Shown piece after piece: positions 1-39,430 of a stretch of 64,000 nt of DNA (positions within the stretch are counted from its first letter, which is position 1; every line of letters begins with the position of its first letter). Origin of the DNA: Escherichia coli (GTDB taxonomy: Bacteria; Pseudomonadota; Gammaproteobacteria; Enterobacterales; Enterobacteriaceae). The position numbers were made by a program, and so were the translations under genes. The notes under the pieces are model-generated. The model worked only from the letters and a program-made list of their open reading frames with translations. It was not told the origin of the DNA and did no database searches. The stretch lies in the NCBI RefSeq assembly GCF_003334405.1, contig NZ_QOWM01000018.1; one strand, 5' to 3'.

Positions 1-857
1 ATCGTCTGCAGGAATTCCGCAATATCAATGCAGATGCTCAGGTAGGTGTATCAGCTGTAGCAGCCATGGCAAATGACACTCTGCCGTTTGCCCTTATGGT
101 CAAGTCTTACGGAACTGTCAGCGTAAACGGAAAAGTAAACGATGCAGACCTGGATTATCTGGACAAAGTTGCCAATGGAACAATTACCGACGTCGATAAG
201 AATGCCCTGACCTCACGCGCATTCGGGCGTGCAGCTGTAATTACCGACGTCGGAATTTCATTTGCCAAAGAACTGGAAACGGCCGGACAAAAATGGTCTC
301 TTGGCGTCACACCAAAATATCAGCGTGTGGACCTGTTTAACTACAACGTAACGGTTCGTGATTACGACAAAGACGATTTTGACGGTGACAAGTACCACAA
401 CACGAAAAACGGATTCAACGCCGATATTGGTGCTTATACAGACCTGAATGACAACTGGACTGTCGGTCTTGTTGCCCAGAACATCATTCCACGCAGTATT
501 GATACAAAAGTCGTCAATGGCTTTAAAGAAACCTTCAAAGTTCGTCCACAGGCAACCGCCGGTGTATCCTGGCATAATGACCTGTTTACCACTGCTCTTG
601 ACGTTGATCTGACTCCTGCCAGTGGCTTCACTTCTGACAGCAAACGTCAGTTTGCAAGTGTTGGTGCTGAATTTAACGCATGGAAATGGGCGCAATTGCG
701 TGCCGGTTATCGTCAGAACATGGCATCAAACTCCGGAAGCGCCTTCACCGCTGGCGTTGGTATCTCTCCATTTGACGTCGTACATATCGATGTTTCCGGC
801 CTGGTAGGAACTGACCACGATTACGGTGCAATGGCACAACTTCAGTTCACTTTCTGA
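1..857 (+). CDS. traF: Conjugal transfer protein, 5'-truncated by window edge; beta-barrel-like C-terminus ending QFTF (TraF position)
   Basis: Reading frame is open from position 3 upstream of the first ATG at 66; C-terminal aromatic residue typical of outer-membrane proteins; position upstream of traG-traH in R64-type order. Confidence 0.4.
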   Translation, partial: RLQEFRNINADAQVGVSAVAAMANDTLPFALMVKSYGTVSVNGKVNDADLDYLDKVANGTITDVDKNALTSRAFGRAAVITDVGISFAKELETAGQKWSLGVTPKYQRVDLFNYNVTVRDYDKDDFDGDKYHNTKNGFNADIGAYTDLNDNWTVGLVAQNIIPRSIDTKVVNGFKETFKVRPQATAGVSWHNDLFTTALDVDLTPASGFTSDSKRQFASVGAEFNAWKWAQLRAGYRQNMASNSGSAFTAGVGISPFDVVHIDVSGLVGTDHDYGAMAQLQFTF

Positions 858-916
858 TTACTGTCCCCGCCCCCGGCACTAAACCCGGGGGTATTTTTAT
901 ATTCAGTTTAAATAAC

Positions 917-1501
917 ATGATGAAACCACGTTCCTCTTATTCAAAGACAGCATTCATTCTTTTATTTTCTGTTTTCCTGGTAGCTGCAGTGACAAAAGCA
1001 AAAAGCTCGCTTCCCGATATCACCCTGGAACAGGCAAAAGAAATTAATGCTGATAACACCGTTATTTTCCTTTTCCGCCATGGAGAACGTTGCGACCGTT
1101 CAGATATGCCCTGCTATTCGGATAAGAGCGGAATCACTATTACCGGTACAGAGAAAGCACAGCAGGAAGGTATTAAGTTCGCAACAATCTTCAGTAAATA
1201 TGATATTTACTCCAGCAATGCAGTAAGAACCATACAAACTGCAAAATTCTTCTCCGGTAAAGAACCCGTCGTTATGGACAGTTTATCAGACTGCAATAAT
1301 GATCTTTATAAGACGCTTGAATCAATCGCAAGAGAATCTCATAAAAGGAACATAGTAATAATGACACATAATCATTGTTTATCATTTCTGGCCAGAGACA
1401 GGCTCGGCAAGAAATTCAAACCGGCGTACCTTGATGCCCTGATCATGCATTACGATGGTACCCGGCTCATACTTGACGGAAAATACAACAAAGAGGCATA
1501 G
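917..1501 (+). CDS. traG: Secreted histidine-phosphatase-superfamily protein (RHGE motif), TraG position
   Basis: N-terminal signal peptide (AFILLFSVFLVAAVTKA); LFRHGERCDRSD matches the RHG[EQ] catalytic signature of the histidine phosphatase/PGM superfamily; lower GC than neighbouring genes. Confidence 0.45.
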   Translation: MMKPRSSYSKTAFILLFSVFLVAAVTKAKSSLPDITLEQAKEINADNTVIFLFRHGERCDRSDMPCYSDKSGITITGTEKAQQEGIKFATIFSKYDIYSSNAVRTIQTAKFFSGKEPVVMDSLSDCNNDLYKTLESIARESHKRNIVIMTHNHCLSFLARDRLGKKFKPAYLDALIMHYDGTRLILDGKYNKEA

Positions 1502-1657
1502 AGGATATTTGAATTTACATAAATTCTGATATACTCAGTAAGATACAAGAGTGTACGGGCACATGTGCCTGTCTGAATTGCAGGTTATCCGGACGAGGGC
1601 CGGGAACTGTTTCAGGGACAAGCGCCGGTACATTCGATTCATAAATCGTCGAGTCAT

Positions 1658-1690
1658 CCATCATGGATCGATTCGGCGCGGAGCGTTAAA
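1658..1690. repeat. ~30-bp repeat, copy 1 (second copy at 63466-63500)
   Basis: CATCATGGATCGATTCGGCGCGGAGCGTTAAAG versus CATCATGCCTGGATCGCTTCGGCGCGGAGCGTTAAG. Confidence 0.4.
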
Positions 1691-1895
1691 GATTACGCTC
1701 ATATTCGTTTTATGTCTGACGACACATCAACCAGCCAGTATCAGGAATAATCACCTTCAGTAAACTATGAGGCTATTTACCTGGCCACACTGGCATTTAT
1801 TTCCGGTAACGCAAGTATAGCCGGAAACAAACATCATCCTGTCTGTACCGGAGCACCGGTATATCCCATTCTGATTTAACTGCTCAGGAATTATT

Positions 1896-4615: not shown

Positions 4616-5167
4616 ATGTCAGGTAAAAAAACTATCGTTACTCTGCTCCGGGTATCGCTACTGGCATGCCCGTTACTGTTCACGACACCATCGTTTGCAA
4701 TGATCGACACGCCATCCGTGAAGGTCGGCTTTTCTCCTGAAGGAAGCGCATCCGCTCTGGTGCTTGACACAATCAACAGTGCGGAAAGCTCCATCAGGAT
4801 GATGGCATATTCCTTCACCGACCCGGATGTAATGCATGCGCTGGCAAAAGCGAAAAAACGCGGAGTGGACGTCCGTATTGTTGTTGATGACAAGGGGAAT
4901 ACGAACCGGGCAAGTCAGGAAGCGATGAAATATATCAACCTGCTGGACATTCCTCTGCGGACTGTAGATGCCTTCCCCATCCATCACGACAAAGTCATCA
5001 TTGTTGACGGAAACACGGTTGAAACCGGCTCCTATAACTTCTCTCGTGCTGCTGCACGCAAGAATTCAGAGAATGTCGTTGTGCTCAAGAATATGCCGGA
5101 TGTAGCCGCACAATATCTTGAACACTGGCAGGATCGCTGGAATAAGGGTACAGACTGGAGACCCTGA
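4616..5167 (+). CDS. nuc: Secreted phospholipase-D-family endonuclease (Nuc-like)
   Basis: Start at ATG 4616 with GGAG SD (track ORF 4256..5167 is over-extended); signal peptide; HKD motif HHDKVIIVD followed by GSYNFS. Confidence 0.75.
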   Translation: MSGKKTIVTLLRVSLLACPLLFTTPSFAMIDTPSVKVGFSPEGSASALVLDTINSAESSIRMMAYSFTDPDVMHALAKAKKRGVDVRIVVDDKGNTNRASQEAMKYINLLDIPLRTVDAFPIHHDKVIIVDGNTVETGSYNFSRAAARKNSENVVVLKNMPDVAAQYLEHWQDRWNKGTDWRP

Positions 5168-5256
5168 CAAACATTTCTCCCCCGGTTTTCTATCCCCCCA
5201 GCCACCCCCGGCTTCCGGCGGTGGTTTTTTTCCGTCTTTTTTCAGGAGAAGCACTC

Positions 5257-8200
5257 ATGCCGTCTGTATCCCGCTACCGCACCTGGCTTGCCGTGCCTGC
5301 AGATGAAATAGAAGATCTCAAAAAAGCACATCCCCCGATGAACGGGCACACGCCCGTCATCTGGGACAAGGAGCACAAACTCTGGTTCGCCCGCCCGGGG
5401 GCAGACCTGTCCAGGCTGGACCGCTGGCTGCCCCGGCCACAGGACGTCTCCATGAACGGCAGTGATCCGGTCACCGAGTTTGCCCAGGTTCTGGAGAATG
5501 CCGGACTGGTTCTGAAAGAACTGCCGGTCATGGACGGGAAAATCCACCGTGTCCCGACCGCCGATGACAAAAAAGGACAAAAAAGTGGCGCATATCGCGG
5601 CTTCCTGGACGGCAGACCTGCCGGCTGGTACAGGGATTATCGCAGCGCGGATGATTCGCCGATCACCTGGACCTTCTCCGGCGGAGAACAGACAGATCCC
5701 CGCGCAAGACTCCACCTGAAAGCGCATTCAATGCAACGCAGGGAGGACGCGGAGCGGGAACTGAAAGCACAGTACAACCGACAGGCCGCGTATGCCCGCC
5801 GCTATGTCAACAAATGGCCGCAGGCCACAGCACATGAATACCTGACCCGGAAAGGCATTCAGGCTGCACCGGGGGTGCGGGTAAACAACAAAAATGAACT
5901 GGTTATTCCCTTCAGTAACCGTAACGGCGCGATACGCTCTTACCAGCGTATTCCGGTCACCGGGGGGAAAGATGCCCGCATCCTGATAGATTCGGAGAAA
6001 ACCGGTAACTGGTTTGCGCTGGGCACACCGCGCAACGGTCAGCCGGTACTGTTTGCCGAGGGCTATGCCACTGCGGCCTCCCTGCACGAAGCCACGGGCC
6101 TTCCGGTACTGATGACGGTGGATGGAGGCAACATGATTGCCGTTGCCGAAAATGCCCGGCAAAAGTGGACGCAAAGCCCCTTTATCTTCTGTGCCGACAA
6201 CGATCATGCAATCCGGGTTAACAAAGGTATCGTCAGTGCAACAAAAGCCGCAGAACTGACAGGAGGAACGGTCATCTTTCCTGCGTTCACCGATGCCGAA
6301 AAAGCGCAGGGACTGACCGATTTCAATGACCTGGACGCCAGCCGGGGACGGGCCGCTTTTCAGCATGTCATCAACGCCCAGTTAGAACATATCGGGGTTT
6401 CCACCCCCAACAGTAACACCCCGGAAATCCGGGAGGCACTGGTGATCGGCAACCTCGTTTTTACACCGGTCCACACTGAGGAAAAAACCATGACTCCGAC
6501 AGAATATCCTGAAACATCACCCGATACAGGGCACAGCCATGACCAGGGACCTTCTCTGCCGTCCGCCACGCAGCAGGAACAACCAGCTGCTTCCAGCAGT
6601 AACATTGCTGATGAAACACAGTCATTTACCAGTCACGCCACTGAAAATAACGGCAAAGATGAGCGGCACGCTGATAACGTTCAGGCGCAAACGGAAAGCT
6701 CTGTAGTTCAGGACTCCCCTGCAGAATCACCGGCGTCCCCGGAAAGTACAACGGCGTCTGCCCCTGATGAACCCGCTCATCCGGCGGAACCTCCGGAAAA
6801 AGTTGTCTCGGTGGCCACAGATAAAGACTGGCGTGAATTTGAAGCCGAACTGTCACAACCGGAAAAAAACGAGTCACAACAGGAATCCGGCACTTCACCT
6901 GAAATACCGGCCCCTGCTGCCGCCCCCGCATCCCCTGAAGACAGTCCCTCATCTGAAACCATGAATGAATCAGCCGAGCCATCACCTTCCCCTGATGCAG
7001 TCAAAGAGGAAATGACCGTGATGACGGAGCCTGATGACAAACAAAGCACCGGAATATCCCCGGATACTCCCCGGGAAGAGGCGGTCAGCCATGTAACTGA
7101 AGACATTCCCCTTCAGCCAGAACCGTTCCTTCCTGAGTCAGATGGCCCTGAAGAATACGAAGACTACAGCGCATATCAGGAGCTGATGAACAATGAAAAT
7201 CCTGAGCATCTGCAGGAAAACAGTGATATGCCGTCGCAACCGGACACAGGCCACGTTCAGGCAGATGAGTCAGAACTTCAGACCACAACAGATACTGCAG
7301 AACCGGCTGTCCGGGATGAACCCACTCCGCAGCAACCTGTTCAGAGCACATCACCTTCTGATAATACTTCTTCGTTTCTCGACAAAGCGCGTGGCCTTTT
7401 TACGCGTAAAAAAACGGATTCACAGGCGCATGAGAACAGTGATCCCACGCCCTCACAGGAAACCACGACGACCACACCGACACCTGACAGTATTGTCTAC
7501 GCCCCGGAACGTTCTGATGCACAGATATCGCTCAACATAGACGAAATTCTTAAAGAGCTTGACTGGGAAAAACGAGCAGACAGAACCGTCCTGTACAAAC
7601 TGGATGGCAAACCTGCCTTCATTGACCGGGTAAACCGGCTGGAAATGGTCAACGGTGCCAGCAATGACGATCGCAGCGTTCTGGCCGCACTTGCTGTGGC
7701 CACCAAATTTTATGGGGGCGTCATAGAGCTGACGGGCAGTGATGCCTTTAAGCAAAAAGCAATGCAGTTGATTATCGAGCACAACATCGATGTCCGGATG
7801 AAATTGCCAGATCAACGGGCTGAACTAGAAAAATTACGCAAGGAAATGGCTGTCAGTAAGGATGCTGTTGTCACCCATCAGCCAACACCGGAACTTAACC
7901 GGAATATCCCTGAACAACCGGCTGTCCCTGACCCCGTTCAGGAAAAAGAAGCCACACAATCCCCGGCGTCCCCTGCTGCCCCTGAAGCATCAACCGTCAG
8001 CACCGCTCCTGCATCATCACCGGCTGAACCAGGCAAAACGGCAGATGCAGCACCAGGTGAAGAACCTCCAGGAAAACTTCGCCCGGGAGAGAGCGTGACT
8101 GCCGTACTGCACAATTTTGGTCGTGCTGAATATGCACCCGGCAAAGGAGAAAGTTTCTTTGTTGAGCTTAAAAACCGCAGTGGCAGCAAACTCTACTGGG

Positions 8201-34134: not shown

Positions 34135-34986
34135 TCAGACTCGTGGCGGCAATGAACCAGGATAATGCCGTGCAATAATATCATTCAGTTTTTCAACAAG
34201 GTCAGGACGCTTAAAGACAATGTGTACGGTCCCTTTCTGGTAGCCACGCACCGTAAAATATTCCCCTTCTAACAGCTTACCGACATTGTCGCCGTTCCCG
34301 AGAAATTCACCATACTGCGCCCCGATGCTGCTCCGGAAGTCAGGAACGTTGCGCCCCTCCAGCAGATAAAACGGACGTACCAGGTCATCCAGTGCCTCTC
34401 GTCCGCTGCAGTCCAGCGTCACACGCCCGTTACTCCAGCGGTACAGCAGGTTTTCAATAATGATTTTCTTGCCCAGACGGCATGGATTGTTGGTTCTGTA
34501 ATCCCATGACAGTTTCCTGTAGACATCAATCAGTCCCTGTTCAAATGTCTGCATCTTACTGGCATTCAGATGGCGAAAAGTTGCCAGCACATTGTCCAGG
34601 GTGATTTCAGGACAGGTGTCGCTCATCAGCTGGCTGTTCCACTCATCACGCTGGCATGAACTCATGAAGGTGTACATCCCCGTATCCGTCATCAGGCGGT
34701 CCCAGATTTTACGGTCGGCAAGACGGGTGATATTCCTTTTCACTTCTTCCGGTTTATCCATGCACCGAATGGAGTCGGTCACGCAGTCTTCAAAACCGTA
34801 AAGAAAAATATCACCTGACGCATCAAGCAGAATCCTGCGCGCTGTCGCCAGGCATTCCATCGCCTGCATGAACAGTGCAATACCTTCGTTACGCTGCGCG
34901 ATGATGCGGTCGATGGCCACAGACGGAATAACATCTGTCGTGCCGGCAGTATTCAGGTCAGCAGTGGGTAAAGTCTGATTCATCAC
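34135..34986 (-). CDS. Leading-region hypothetical protein (first large gene after oriT)
   Basis: 283-aa ORF immediately downstream of ssi repeat copy A; no recognised domain. Confidence 0.4.
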   Translation of the reverse strand: MMNQTLPTADLNTAGTTDVIPSVAIDRIIAQRNEGIALFMQAMECLATARRILLDASGDIFLYGFEDCVTDSIRCMDKPEEVKRNITRLADRKIWDRLMTDTGMYTFMSSCQRDEWNSQLMSDTCPEITLDNVLATFRHLNASKMQTFEQGLIDVYRKLSWDYRTNNPCRLGKKIIIENLLYRWSNGRVTLDCSGREALDDLVRPFYLLEGRNVPDFRSSIGAQYGEFLGNGDNVGKLLEGEYFTVRGYQKGTVHIVFKRPDLVEKLNDIIARHYPGSLPPRV

Positions 34987-35023: not shown

Positions 35024-35440
35024 GTCATCTCCCGGAGGAGCGAAGCTCCTTCTGCCGTCCGGGTCTTCGGGGATTTCCCCGCAGTGGACCTTTCCGACGG
35101 GGGACGCTCACCACGTCACGGGGCAGTTGTCCGGGGGCAGACGCAAAAGTTTTTGACGCCTGCGGCAAAAAGTTTTGTGGCTGGTACATCTCTCCCCTGG
35201 ATGACTGAAACGGGATGTGGTCGTGTATGTACCCCCGGAAAGTCCGTCTGCGGAGAACGGGCCGCAGGGCGGCGGCAGGCAGGCAGAGAGAACTGCGCCA
35301 TCAGGCGCAGTGGCCTTACACACCGTAAGGTGTGCAGGGAGCGCCGCATCCGGCGCGACCGGAGAAAACCGACGGCACAACAACGGCATGCGGTGGTCAC
35401 TGGTACACCACTCCCGCACAGGTGAAAACAGAGAAAACCG
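35024..35440. repeat. Frpo/ssi-like GC-rich repeat, copy A (family 1)
   Basis: Shares a conserved core (CGGAGGAGCGAAGCTCCTTCTGCCGTCC ... CCGCAGTGGACCTTTCCGA ... CGCAAAAGTTTTTG) with copies at 37890 and 44236. Confidence 0.55.
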
Positions 35441-35456
35441 CACGACATCTACAACT

Positions 35457-35550
35457 AAAAAAAGTGAAATTTCTTCACTTTTTTACACTTATTTATTGCG
35501 TTGATTTGGTGATTGTGATGATAAAATAAAGTGAAGTTTTTTCACTTTTT
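35457..35550. promoter_or_regulatory. Two palindromic operator-like sites AAGTGAA-N5-TTCACTT flanking a promoter-like region
   Basis: Palindromes at 35462-35480 and 35529-35547; TTGATT and TGATAA hexamers between; AAGGTG SD before ATG 35563. Confidence 0.4.
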
Positions 35551-35562
35551 CAAAGGTGTTTT

Positions 35563-35814
35563 ATGACCGGCTGGGAACTGCGAATCTGGCGAAAAAGCAT
35601 GCTCTGGTCACGCGAAAAAGCGGCCAGAGAATTTGGCGTGACACAGAGAACATGGCACGCCTGGGAAAATGCGGATCAGGTGGATGTCACCGTCTGGAGG
35701 ACCACCCAGGCACTTTCAGTCCGTGACCTGCTGCCTCACATGCAGGGGATGCGCAAGGCAGATATCATCAGGCGTCTGGAAAATGAACTGGGGGAAACGG
35801 CAGAGGATGTGTGA
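35563..35814 (+). CDS. Small XRE-like helix-turn-helix regulator
   Basis: 83 aa; HTH-like segment SREKAAREFGVTQRTWHAWE. Confidence 0.45.
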   Translation: MTGWELRIWRKSMLWSREKAAREFGVTQRTWHAWENADQVDVTVWRTTQALSVRDLLPHMQGMRKADIIRRLENELGETAEDV

Positions 35815-35844
35815 GCGTGATTCACAGCCTGGCTGAATGCCAGG

Positions 35845-36066
35845 CTACTGCTCATCAGGAAACAGTTTTTTCAGTTCTTCACCGGAAAGTCCGGTCGCCT
35901 CCTGAATCCGTTCCGGCGGCCAGCCCATATCCCGCAGCCGGCAGGCTATTTCCCGCGCCACTTCAAGAGCGCCTTTTTGAATAAGACGTTCTGCAATCGT
36001 CATGCTGTTTGCTCTGCTCCTGCTGGCAAAAAAGCCCGGGATTTTGCCGGGCTTTGCGGTTCTCAT
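35845..36066 (-). CDS. Small protein homologous to the C-terminal tail of the upstream Rpn nuclease
   Basis: Start ATG overlaps Rpn stop (TAATG); MTIAERLIQKG...IACRL...ATGLSGEELKK parallels Rpn tail MTIAERLEQKG...IACQL...ATGLSDDELKK. Confidence 0.5.
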   Translation of the reverse strand: MRTAKPGKIPGFFASRSRANSMTIAERLIQKGALEVAREIACRLRDMGWPPERIQEATGLSGEELKKLFPDEQ

Positions 36067-36980
36067 TAGTGAGTTATTTTCTTCAGTTCGTCATCGGAAA
36101 GTCCGGTAGCCTGCTTAATCTGCTCCGGCGTCATCCCCATTTTCTGAAGCTGGCACGCAATAGCCAGGGCTTTTTCAAGCGCTCCTTCCATGCGTCCTTC
36201 CATCCTGCCTTCCTGGCGACCTTTTTGCTCAAGACGTTCTGCGATAGTCATCAGTTTATCCTCATGCTGCGGCAGACGCTCAGCCAGCGCCCGCATAAAT
36301 TCCGGTGATACAGAGTCCCCTGCGTTAACGATGTAATGAATCAGAACACGCACCTGCTCGTCTGAAATTTCCACCATGACCTGCGGGAGTTTGTCCAGCA
36401 GCTCCATCATGTCACGATGGCGGATATGCTTCATCAGCAGCGTCAGTGCGGCCATCCGGCGATGGTTCATGATTTCATTGTCATCAACGACAGTGATATC
36501 AACCAGCGGAAACGGCTTTGTGTATATTTTAGCCGCAAGTGCCGGATTCTCAAAACAGTCCAGCCAGTTCATGCTGTACGGATACGGGCTGCGCTCACCA
36601 TGATAGAACAGCACCGGAATCACCAGTGGCAACGTTTTGTGCTGCTCCAGATGTCTCTGCATCGCCGCCACACTGTAACGTAACATGCGGAAAGGCATGT
36701 ACAGATTTTCGGTGCTCTGGTGCTCGATGAGCGTATAAACATAGCCATCTTCACCCCCGGTGGTTTTCACGCTCCAGAGGATATCGCTGGCGTACTGATG
36801 CAGGTCCGGCTCAACAAAGGTGGCGGGTTCCAGCTTCAGCGTGGACAGGTCGCACAACTGCCGGTACTCCGCCGGAAGATGCAGTTCCAGAAAATCTCTG
36901 GCGACGTCGGGATTCGCCAGGAACGACCGGAACGCGGCATCGTGCGGCGTGGGCGTTGTGGTGTTTTTCTTCTTACTCAC
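36066..36980 (-). CDS. Rpn family (YhgA-like, PD-(D/E)XK) recombination-promoting nuclease
   Basis: GTG start with AGGAGG SD; N-terminal TPTPHDAAFRSFL motif and overall pattern typical of Rpn/YhgA proteins. Confidence 0.7.
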   Translation of the reverse strand: MSKKKNTTTPTPHDAAFRSFLANPDVARDFLELHLPAEYRQLCDLSTLKLEPATFVEPDLHQYASDILWSVKTTGGEDGYVYTLIEHQSTENLYMPFRMLRYSVAAMQRHLEQHKTLPLVIPVLFYHGERSPYPYSMNWLDCFENPALAAKIYTKPFPLVDITVVDDNEIMNHRRMAALTLLMKHIRHRDMMELLDKLPQVMVEISDEQVRVLIHYIVNAGDSVSPEFMRALAERLPQHEDKLMTIAERLEQKGRQEGRMEGRMEGALEKALAIACQLQKMGMTPEQIKQATGLSDDELKKITH

Positions 36981-37044
36981 GGTTCCTCCTGGTGAGATGT
37001 CTGAACGTATCCTGCCGCCTGCACAGGCAGACGGCAAGGGTTAA

Positions 37045-37311
37045 TCAGTGGCAGACCCGCTCAATTTCAAGCGCGCGGAGCAGGTGGCCCCATTCGCTGA
37101 CTTTCATGGCGGGGATACGCACCCGCTTCTGCTCACTGCAGCGTCTGGCGATATGGCCGCTCATCGCCAGGACGTCCGGGTTAATCTCATCCTGTGCCAG
37201 CTCCTGACGTCTGAAGCGGGTATGGCGGTGCAGGGGTTTATTCTCCCGCAGGCACTCTTCACGCAGACGCTTTACATACTCGGCGGTTGCGAAGATAATT
37301 GATGGTCTCAT
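37045..37311 (-). CDS. Hypothetical protein (88 aa)
   Basis: ORF in the same transcription unit as the upstream 144-aa gene and Rpn; no recognised domain. Confidence 0.3.
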   Translation of the reverse strand: MRPSIIFATAEYVKRLREECLRENKPLHRHTRFRRQELAQDEINPDVLAMSGHIARRCSEQKRVRIPAMKVSEWGHLLRALEIERVCH

Positions 37312-37404
37312 GGCATAATCTCCATAGATAGTGATTGAGATGCCGGACTTCCTGGCGGGGAAGCGCCGGCGGAGAGAGGCAGGGTTTATCGCCCTGCCTC
37401 TTTT

Positions 37405-37839
37405 TCATTTCGGACAGCGACGCAGTGCCAGCGCGAGCGCTTTCATCTTCCAGCCTTCCGGCGTGCGGTACATCACCTTCCAGTAGCCGTCGATGAACAC
37501 ATAATGGAAGCGCACCTCTTCAGTGCTTTCAGTGGCAATAGCTTCCCTGAAAGAACGGTACTCACGCGCCTCACTGTCCATCCGGAAACCACTGTCACGT
37601 CCGTAATAAGCCGTCACACCGTCCACCGGGTTCTGAAGCGTATGCCCGGCGGGTTTGTCGCAACGGGGACCGAGGCAACGGATATCACCGTGTTCAACCA
37701 GGGCTTCGGCCTGCTGACCGGTGGCATAGTGGGTATGCAGGATGCGACCGTTCCAGGTCGGCTCACCGTGCAGGTGGCAGTAAACGGTACGGAACACCCC
37801 GTCGCGGCAAAAAACGGAAATCGTGCTGCTGACAGTCAT
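37405..37839 (-). CDS. Hypothetical Cys/His-rich protein (144 aa), first gene after ssi copy B
   Basis: ORF with SD; no recognised domain. Confidence 0.4.
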   Translation of the reverse strand: MTVSSTISVFCRDGVFRTVYCHLHGEPTWNGRILHTHYATGQQAEALVEHGDIRCLGPRCDKPAGHTLQNPVDGVTAYYGRDSGFRMDSEAREYRSFREAIATESTEEVRFHYVFIDGYWKVMYRTPEGWKMKALALALRRCPK

Positions 37840-37889
37840 GAAAACGTCTCCTTCTGCTGAATCAGGTCGCCGGGCCGACCGGTTGCTCC

Positions 37890-38430
37890 CCGGAGGGGCG
37901 AAAGCCCCTTCTGCCGTCCACTTCTTCGGGGTTTCTCCCCGCAGTGGACCTTTCCGATGGGGCGTCCGTCACCACGTCACGGGGCAGCTGTCCGGGGGCG
38001 GACGCAAAATTTTTTGCCGGGTTTATGGCTAAAAATTTTGTGGACGGTATATCTTCCCCTGGACTGCTGAAACGGGATGTGGTTACTCCAGCCCCCGGAA
38101 AGTCCACAGCGGGAAACAGGCCGCAGGGGTGGCGGCGGAAGGGTTGACTGCGCCATCAGGCGCAGTTGCCTTACACACCGTCAGGTGTGCAGGGAGCGCC
38201 GTTTCCGGCGCGACAGGGGCGGCGCGACCGGAACGGTCGCTGCAAGCCTGGTTTTTCAGACATCGGACCGTAGCGGCAGCCCGAAACCGCGCCAGCGGGT
38301 TCGGCGGAGACTGGCGGGTGCGCCAGCAGCTGCCTGTCGGAGTCGGGCCTGACGACCGGATGCCGCCAGGCAGCCGGGAGCCGAAGGTGTCCCCGCCTCC
38401 GGAAATCAGAACAACAGAAACGACATAACA
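37890..38430. repeat. Frpo/ssi-like GC-rich repeat, copy B (family 1)
   Basis: About 540 bp, near-identical to copy C over most of its length. Confidence 0.55.
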
Positions 38431-39068: not shown

Positions 39069-39096
39069 TCCCGAATCCTCCATAGTCACATGTTCT

Positions 39097-39430
39097 GCGA
39101 CACCGGGCGGTGCCGTGCCTCCATAAAAGCCGGGCGATAAGGCGGGGATGCACAGGGCGCAAGGGAAGCCGCAGCCTGACGCACACGGCTGGCGGGAGTT
39201 GGAGGGTGAGACCGCGAAATCTGAGCGGGTGAACGACCGGAAAATCACGGCAGACGGGAAGGAGGGACCGGGTGACCGCAGCGGCGAAGCGTACCCTTGC
39301 ATCCCTGCCAGCCCGGCTAAGATGGAGGCACGGCACAGCCCGCACACGATACGGCGGCCACAGAGCTGAAAACCCACAAGGCCATGCCCCGCATGGCCGG
39401 GTAAAAGCGGAGCCGCCGGCGACTTCCTTA
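39097..39430. repeat. ~335-bp leader repeat upstream of ardA (family 2), duplicated upstream of klcA
   Basis: Near-identical to 46050-46382. Confidence 0.6.

Follow-up and report, generated by a model that had tools for sequence, protein, structure and literature searches.

We analyzed a 64,000-nucleotide stretch of Escherichia coli DNA (contig NZ_QOWM01000018.1 of RefSeq assembly GCF_003334405.1), referred to here as the window, with a focus on an Rpn nuclease gene and a small open reading frame (ORF) that follows it directly on the same strand. The setting is the leading region of an IncI-complex conjugative plasmid, and the surrounding 3 kb (35400–38400) match thousands of E. coli, Salmonella, and Shigella plasmids of types IncI1, I-gamma/K1, and B/O at 95 to 99% identity. 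As a preliminary description of the window had proposed, the larger gene encodes an Rpn nuclease: its product matches the Pfam family PF04754 (Transposase_31/YhgA-like) over residues 11 to 207 with E = 2e-78 and scores 181.9 bits against the NCBIfam model TIGR01784 ("Rpn family recombination-promoting nuclease"; cut-off 52.1). PADLOC returned no match for it, which is uninformative because PADLOC is without an Rpn model. The gene starts with GTG preceded by GGAGGAA. Window positions 37280–36882 agree at 397 of 399 nt with the RpnP2 gBlock AO591 of Zhong et al. (PNAS 2023; PMC10400941), a comparison that covers the readable 399 nt of AO591, namely 300 bp upstream and the first 33 codons. Over its first 133 residues, the window protein is separated from the inactive-mutant fragment AO730 solely by D14A, D66A, E86A, and Q88K; the active-site residues D14, D66, E86, and Q88 are wild type in the window. 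Judged by these matches, the gene is rpnP2, which has already been characterized experimentally.

Rpn genes encode a toxic nuclease, RpnL, and an antitoxin, RpnS, that is made from an internal start and corresponds to the C-terminal domain of the same protein; RpnL/RpnS pairing relies on a long helix with a variable count of four-residue repeats, which in RpnS proteins begin 8 to 20 residues after the Met (PMC10400941). The general notion that Rpn nucleases are restrained by small proteins derived from their own C-terminal domain, on which the preliminary description drew, is therefore borne out by the literature. The gene rpnP2 was described as a plasmid gene of E. coli strain ECOR13 that protects against T-even phages, with a toxic RpnP2L and with reported synthesis and antitoxin function of an internal-start RpnP2S (PMC10400941). 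On the strength of the sequence identity, RpnP2L toxicity, RpnP2S rescue, and phage defense can be taken to apply to the window gene. Its internal start is an ATG at 36251–36249 (Met244) with GAGGA 7 nt upstream, aligned with the starts of the small ORF and of RpnA-S, and its C terminus carries three four-residue repeats, RQEG RMEG RMEG. RpnP2 thus has a built-in antitoxin, so the premise that its C-terminal domain had been moved to a separate gene was mistaken. A sigma-70-like site on the minus strand (TTGAGA-16 nt-TAAAAT, 36526–36553; 10 of 12 matches) also lies within rpnP2, some 275 nt ahead of the internal ATG. Zhong et al. report a short RpnS transcript for rpn genes, and this site could serve as its internal promoter.

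The TAA stop codon of rpnP2 (36068–36066) overlaps an ATG (36066–36064) that opens a 73-codon ORF ending at 35845. Residues 22 to 68 of this ORF align with residues 244 to 302 of the Rpn protein at 54% identity (BLASTP E = 5e-15), the sole gap being 12 residues long, i.e., three four-residue repeats, and on the DNA level, the same relationship appears as a 110-nt direct repeat of 75% identity (35866–35975 and 36078–36187). The small ORF is, as first suggested, a paralog of the Rpn C-terminal domain. We compared its start and the sequence preceding it across 14 related plasmid loci. In eight of them, the ATG that overlaps the rpnP2 stop shares its frame with the conserved part of the ORF (TAATG here, TGATG in the seven others); two, which read TGAGTAA, lack it, and four have it out of frame, with 62 or 59 nt rather than 63 before the conserved Met. 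All loci that keep the small ORF have just one start in common, the ATG of MT[IL]AERL, at 36003 in the window, which gives a protein of 52 aa.

RNA folding revealed a hairpin at 36028–36055 with arms AAAGCCCGG and CCGGGCTTTTTT and the loop CAAAATC. This hairpin is kept in the 14 loci, in some with a compensatory G:C pair (GGCCCGG...CCGGGCC), and its immediate 5' flank abounds in insertions and deletions (indels), which do not accumulate in the ORF itself. A consensus terminator scan did not pick it up, probably because A/T pairs extend the stem into the T-run. Because the overlapping ATG can be missing or out of frame, the hairpin is conserved, and the indels fall 5' of the hairpin, we read the 21-codon extension of the 73-codon ORF as most likely non-coding, its pattern being that of a terminator rather than of a coding segment. 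By this comparison, the conserved product of the small gene, which we name rpnP2Ss, is the 52-aa protein from ATG 36003 and not a 73-aa protein from TAATG. The overlap and the 73-codon ORF of the preliminary description are thus present in the window, and it is the 52-aa gene that is conserved among related plasmids; the proposed translational coupling fares less well, since neither the overlap nor the 73-codon form is conserved across the loci, and TAATG appears from the alignment to be incidental.

Residues 1 to 45 of the 52-aa protein align with residues 1 to 45 of the RpnA-S crystal chain (PDB 7TH0). An AlphaFold2 model shows a three-helix bundle with a long first helix (residues 3–25, 30–37, and 41–47; mean predicted local distance difference test score 76), and its best match in the PDB is again 7TH0 (template modeling scores 0.76/0.84, root mean square deviation 1.1 Å, probability 1.00), with a Foldseek E-value of only 0.085, a consequence of the short chain. 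Sub-threshold matches of the small ORF to the last 42 positions of TIGR01784 and to positions 244 to 288 of the RpnA model are consistent with this assignment, and PF27070 (HTH_Rpn_C) is found in precomputed annotations of close homologs. A Pfam scan of both ORFs, as had been suggested for the pair, recognized the nuclease and gave only noise for the small ORF, the library copy used being without PF27070; homology was established by the other routes. Newer RefSeq annotations name some of the plasmid small ORFs "RpnC/YadD family protein."

The small gene is widespread on plasmids. It occurs in 2031 PLSDB plasmids of types IncI1, I-gamma, K, B/O, and Z, and in 1341 of 5426 complete E. coli genomes, where it occupies 2578 places on plasmids and 29 on chromosomes. 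Across 10 distinct alleles of the non-repeat core (156 nt), pS is 0.121 and pN is 0.022, a ratio of ≈0.19; nine of the 15 variable codons are purely synonymous, and the frame is intact in 13 of the 14 sampled loci. By these measures, the small gene behaves as a maintained gene under purifying selection.

Across plasmids, the small protein carries zero to six repeats of the form F[DEK][EKQ]G behind residue 11, added in 12-nt steps, and their position and kind fit the variation that Zhong et al. describe for RpnS. The window allele has no repeats, and the neighboring RpnP2 has three of another kind. The numbers for RpnP2 and the small protein of the same plasmid, (3,0), (5,1), (3,2), (2,3), (0,4), (4,4), (2,5), (2,6), (6,2), and (2,1), are unrelated (10 pairs; Spearman rho −0.45, p = 0.19). 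Published experiments found RpnC to be inhibited only by a partner of equal repeat number and RpnB not to be blocked by RpnA-S (PMC10400941). Because the repeat numbers are unrelated, the two domains are 54% identical, and these specificity rules hold for other Rpn proteins, we regard the small protein as probably non-cognate, that is, as probably not the antitoxin of the neighboring RpnP2L. The RpnP2LS construct of Zhong et al., which includes "101 bp downstream," was non-toxic and phage-protective (PMC10400941). The primer that defines its end matches codons 7 to 14 of type-F small ORFs exactly, so the construct was without an intact small gene, and since it was nonetheless non-toxic and protective, RpnP2L can be held in check without the small ORF. 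Neither the text of Zhong et al. nor the supplements examined explicitly mention a small gene after rpnP2, and a look at the later literature turned up no paper on plasmid Rpn small genes.

These results bear on the idea of a two-gene toxin/antitoxin, in which the 73-codon ORF, coupled via TAATG, would supply the antitoxin for the upstream nuclease. Such a pair would suit the adjacency of the two genes on one strand, the homology of the small protein to an antitoxin domain, and an overlapping start codon that is in frame with the core both here and, as TGATG, at the same place in seven other loci. It is very unlikely in view of the six of 14 loci that lack the overlapping ATG or have it in another frame, an extension that coincides with a terminator hairpin, the internal antitoxin start that RpnP2 has of its own (PMC10400941), a published construct that was non-toxic with the small ORF truncated, and a sequence type and repeat number unlike those of the neighbor.

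In other plasmids, the 3' end of rpnP2 is rearranged. R621a and many Shigella sonnei and E. coli plasmids encode a 307-aa RpnP2 with a type-F C terminus and are without a separate small gene; the fusion junction falls inside the MTIAERL-coding box, and the GC-rich inverted repeat found at the end of the small gene in the window (GCCTGGC-ATTCA-GCCAGGC) lies directly after the fused rpnP2 of R621a. Plasmid pZ1323HEC0477-2 has a hybrid RpnP2 C-terminal domain with the crossover mid-domain (between GMTPE and RIQEATG in locus L017). Three complete IncI/K plasmids carry, in order, rpnP2 (type B/C, with IQQG-type repeats), a hairpin, a type-A cassette, a hairpin, and a type-F cassette, type A being a stand-alone copy of the C-terminal type of the window's own RpnP2. 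The hairpin unit precedes every stand-alone cassette in these plasmids, and the cassette order is identical in all three, with the type of the small ORF, F, in last place. This constant order fits a stepwise downstream displacement of older C termini, with occasional deletion to two or one cassettes. The three-cassette array was first seen on a metagenome contig of 1.9x coverage and held suspect, and was then confirmed in the three complete plasmids. A fusion protein of RpnP2 and the small ORF (P0008) was discarded, as it came from a draft scaffold rich in N runs and possibly misassembled; fusions were later confirmed in complete plasmids. The preliminary description had raised the possibility of a deletion relic of a tandem rpn copy, and these architectures agree with an origin by recombination, while the low dN/dS (≈0.19) shows an ORF that behaves as a maintained gene rather than as a relic.

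Decay variants of the locus occur as well (NZ_MN419432.1, locus positions 497–1782; NZ_CP060750.1; NZ_CP031920.1): one plasmid has both rpnP2 and the small ORF frameshifted, another has IS66-family elements flanking a remnant of the small ORF, and a third has an rpnP2 pseudogene with the small ORF intact.

Upstream of the locus lies a class-1 ssi/Frpo-like element that would, from its position and fold, drive minus-strand transcription toward ygcA. Folded as single-stranded DNA (ssDNA; 37860–38400), it reaches −165.6 kcal/mol, with z = −9.2 against shuffled sequence. It is one of three dispersed related copies (35099–35362, 37893–38386, and 44237–44736), each directly upstream of a minus-strand block: ygfB, ygcA-ygdA-rpnP2, and ssb...psiB. 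The genes behind the element are separated by gaps of 93 and 64 nt. Because our scan found no minus-strand terminator-like site between 38386 and 36980, an ssi-headed operon ygcA-ygdA-rpnP2 is plausible. The leading-region operon of the preliminary description thus agrees with the position of the locus, the strong hairpin, and the terminator-free path to rpnP2; a terminator-like hairpin stands in front of the small gene, the second gene of the pair. A 2025 study of an IncI1 plasmid found strong induction of six operons ≤15 min after transfer: ssi1-3 head three of these, and hairpins of a second class, which precede ardA and klcA, head two (PMC12672017). A 300-nt direct repeat in the window (39086–39385 and 46040–46339; 99% identical), one copy of which is just upstream of ardA, probably represents these "class 2" ssDNA promoters. 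On ordinary double-stranded plasmids, the 300 bp in front of rpnP2 also drive its expression (PMC10400941).

We consider it likely that the locus consists of rpnP2 and a stand-alone RpnS-type gene, a displaced C-terminal cassette that has been kept intact and is not the antitoxin of its neighbor. As published experiments on this gene have established, rpnP2 gives two proteins, the toxic nuclease RpnP2L and, from ATG 36251, its cognate antitoxin RpnP2S. The small gene encodes the same three-helix dimerization module in another sequence type (F) and with zero instead of three repeats, and RpnS proteins work by pairing via their long first helix. In the mechanism we propose, two uses are likely. 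The displaced cassette would serve as a recombination substrate at the shared MTIAERL-coding box, by which the C-terminal specificity domain of RpnP2 could be swapped, and probably, or at least possibly, as a spare antitoxin that fits those RpnP2L variants whose domain is of type F. Its transcription may come about by read-through of the hairpin from rpnP2 transcripts, including those that would start at the upstream ssDNA promoter just after conjugative entry.

Several points weigh against this interpretation. A conserved terminator-like hairpin sits upstream of the small gene, our scan for a promoter-like site of its own found none, and its Shine-Dalgarno-like AGGAG is 13 nt from the ATG, which is far; expression of the small protein is inferred. 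The K-12 counterpart, ypaA, is annotated in RefSeq as a pseudogene. The dN/dS estimate comes from only 10 alleles of a 156-nt core, and in-frame repeat variation is no proof of selection, as slippage in 12-nt units is always frame-preserving. Finally, the repeat-matching rule was established for RpnC and not for RpnP2. The expression signals and the ypaA annotation would equally suit an inert relic of recombination at the rpnP2 3' end, unexpressed and unselected, that persists in young related plasmids, as would the loss of the small gene by fusion in some plasmids, which marks it as dispensable. We think such a relic unlikely: pN/pS is low, most variable codons are purely synonymous, the frame is intact in nearly all sampled loci and in ≈2000 plasmids of several Inc types, indels accumulate in the flanking non-coding spacer and not in the ORF, and YpaA has been detected as a protein by tagging (PMC10400941).

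The location behind a class-1 ssi element also brings up an anti-defense decoy, an early-expressed orphan antitoxin that would neutralize type-F or other Rpn nucleases resident in the recipient on competing IncI plasmids. Orphan antitoxins are reported to be enriched in leading regions (PMC11541004), and a target exists in natural RpnP2L variants with a type-F C terminus, such as that of R621a. However, the small gene is set apart from rpnP2 by the hairpin terminator, its repeat number varies widely although it would need to equal that of the target, Rpn attack on incoming plasmids is without evidence, and small genes of this kind also follow the chromosomal rpnE and rpnC, outside leading regions. 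When the 52-aa protein was used for a profile search of the whole database, no full-length Rpn family came out closer than that of the plasmid itself, which gave no support for a chromosomal target. All told, a decoy function strikes us as quite improbable. Somewhat less doubtful, and offered tentatively, is a combination in which the rpnP2 3' end would be a recombinational cassette system and its stand-alone cassettes early-expressed orphan antitoxins against the RpnP2L of rival plasmids. A unit made up of the ≈20-nt MTIAERL-coding sequence, the hairpin, and the spacer would allow cassettes to be stacked, swapped, and fused among IncI-complex plasmids, and the orphan antitoxins would be made from the ssDNA promoter in the first minutes after transfer. 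If this were true, the Rpn module would be a tool of plasmid–plasmid competition besides phage defense.

Table 1. Features of the rpnP2 locus in the window and of rearranged loci in other plasmids (coordinates of the latter are those of each locus)
Feature	Sequence	Coordinates	Strand	Description
rpnP2 (ygdB of IncI1 plasmids)	window	36066..36980	-	full-length RpnP2L nuclease/toxin; 304 aa, PD-(D/E)XK-type
RpnP2S reading frame	window	36066..36251	-	intragenic antitoxin; 61 aa: MTIAERLEQKG + RQEG RMEG RMEG + three-helix tail
rpnP2Ss (name given here)	window	35845..36003	-	conserved small gene; 52 aa, RpnS-type (HTH_Rpn_C), type F, zero four-residue repeats
N-terminal extension of the 73-codon ORF	window	36004..36066	-	21 codons; covers the hairpin, indel-rich
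Terminator-like hairpin and T-run	window	36028..36055	-	AAAGCCCGG-CAAAATC-CCGGGCTTT+TTT; between the rpnP2 stop and the conserved small-gene start
GC-rich inverted repeat	window	35827..35845	-	GCCTGGC-ATTCA-GCCAGGC; end of the small gene, common to the convergent ygeA
ygdA	window	37045..37311	-	88 aa, function unassigned; name from pP819-1
ygcA	window	37405..37839	-	144 aa, function unassigned; first gene behind the ssi element; name from pP819-1
Class-1 ssi/Frpo-like single-strand promoter element ("ssi copy B")	window	37893..38386	+	hairpin in the plus (transferred) strand
Fused/hybrid locus	L016 (R621a, NC_015965.1)	859-1782		
Fused/hybrid locus	L018	859-1782		
Fused/hybrid locus	L017	874-1758		
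Three-cassette locus	L022 (NZ_CP025846.1)	409-1806		
Three-cassette locus	L023 (CP070395.1)	409-1826		
Three-cassette locus	L024 (NZ_CP097714.1)	412-1851		

The gene order in annotated relatives is nikB-nikA-(oriT)-yggA-ygfB-ygeA-small ORF-ygdB-ygdA-ygcA-ardA-ygaA-psiA-psiB-yfhA-ssb; in the window, ygcA, ygdA, rpnP2, and the small ORF are all on the minus strand. Neither ygcA nor ygdA matched an NCBIfam or PADLOC family. In some GenBank records, the product of ygcA goes by the name "post-segregation killing protein PndC" (homologs in loci L005, L009, and L013); given the lack of a match to any NCBIfam or PADLOC family, this label looks like an annotation error. The 3' part of ygdA falls inside the 300 bp used as the "native promoter" in the published RpnP2 construct. 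On the other side of the locus, ygeA (35563–35814, plus strand) is an 83-aa helix-turn-helix gene convergent with the small ORF, with a single weak PADLOC match (mad1, E = 0.003), and the ssi/Frpo-like copy at 35099–35362 lies directly upstream of the DUF4942 gene ygfB (34135–34986, minus strand).

Because rpnP2 and this class of small gene were already described, the basic picture of Rpn systems is unchanged. What our analysis adds is the start of the small gene, the independent variation of its repeats, the stacked, fused, and hybrid architectures, and the position of the locus, which lies behind a putative ssDNA promoter. A conserved, independently repeat-varying, exchangeable small gene could explain the fast diversification of Rpn specificity, and rpnP2 is found in a quarter of complete E. 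coli genomes, by way of IncI-type resistance plasmids. The position behind a promoter that fires on entering ssDNA raises the question of whether a nuclease and a spare antitoxin are made during establishment.

Compared with RpnP2 of ECOR13, the window holds the same gene, with the internal start and its Shine-Dalgarno sequence kept; the published account does not put rpnP2 in a leading region behind an ssDNA promoter. The element upstream resembles the ssi1-3/Frpo class-1 promoters of ColIb-P9, pESBL, and F, which likewise occur as dispersed copies of ≈250 to 500 nt upstream of minus-strand blocks, a likeness drawn from position and folding (PMC12672017, PMC11541004). Stand-alone "RpnSs" genes are known downstream of rpn genes on chromosomes and plasmids, namely ypaA (rpnESs) after rpnE and rpnCSs after rpnC, and such genes have been lost through fusion to an rpn N-terminal domain (PMC10400941). 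Like ypaA and rpnCSs, the plasmid small gene directly follows an rpn gene on the same strand, starts at the Met equivalent to the internal start, and is homologous to the neighbor's C-terminal domain with another number of four-residue repeats; it is an additional gene of the RpnSs type, a class already described, and the arrangement is not a new kind of module. In K-12, ypaA begins with MTIAERL, its start lies 12 nt past the rpnE stop, and its product carries one repeat more than the RpnE C terminus. At that locus (NC_000913.3, locus positions 4905–6002), RefSeq lists ypaA as a pseudogene and RpnE as "inactive," though Zhong et al. detected the YpaA protein. The plasmid loci differ in that the spacer contains a conserved terminator-like hairpin, where the 12-nt K-12 spacer has a good Shine-Dalgarno sequence, in that the small protein is of a distinct sequence type only 54% identical to the neighbor's domain, and in that up to two stand-alone cassettes are stacked.

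A further parallel is found in polymorphic toxins. Orphan C-terminal modules pile up downstream of cdiA and rhs genes and share with them a short homology box, which lets recombination swap the C-terminal specificity region; these cassettes are toxin tips with their immunity genes. The likeness to the rpnP2 locus is one of evolutionary logic alone, without a sequence relationship, and in contrast to the cdiA and rhs modules, the rpn cassette is the antitoxin/oligomerization domain of an intracellular nuclease.

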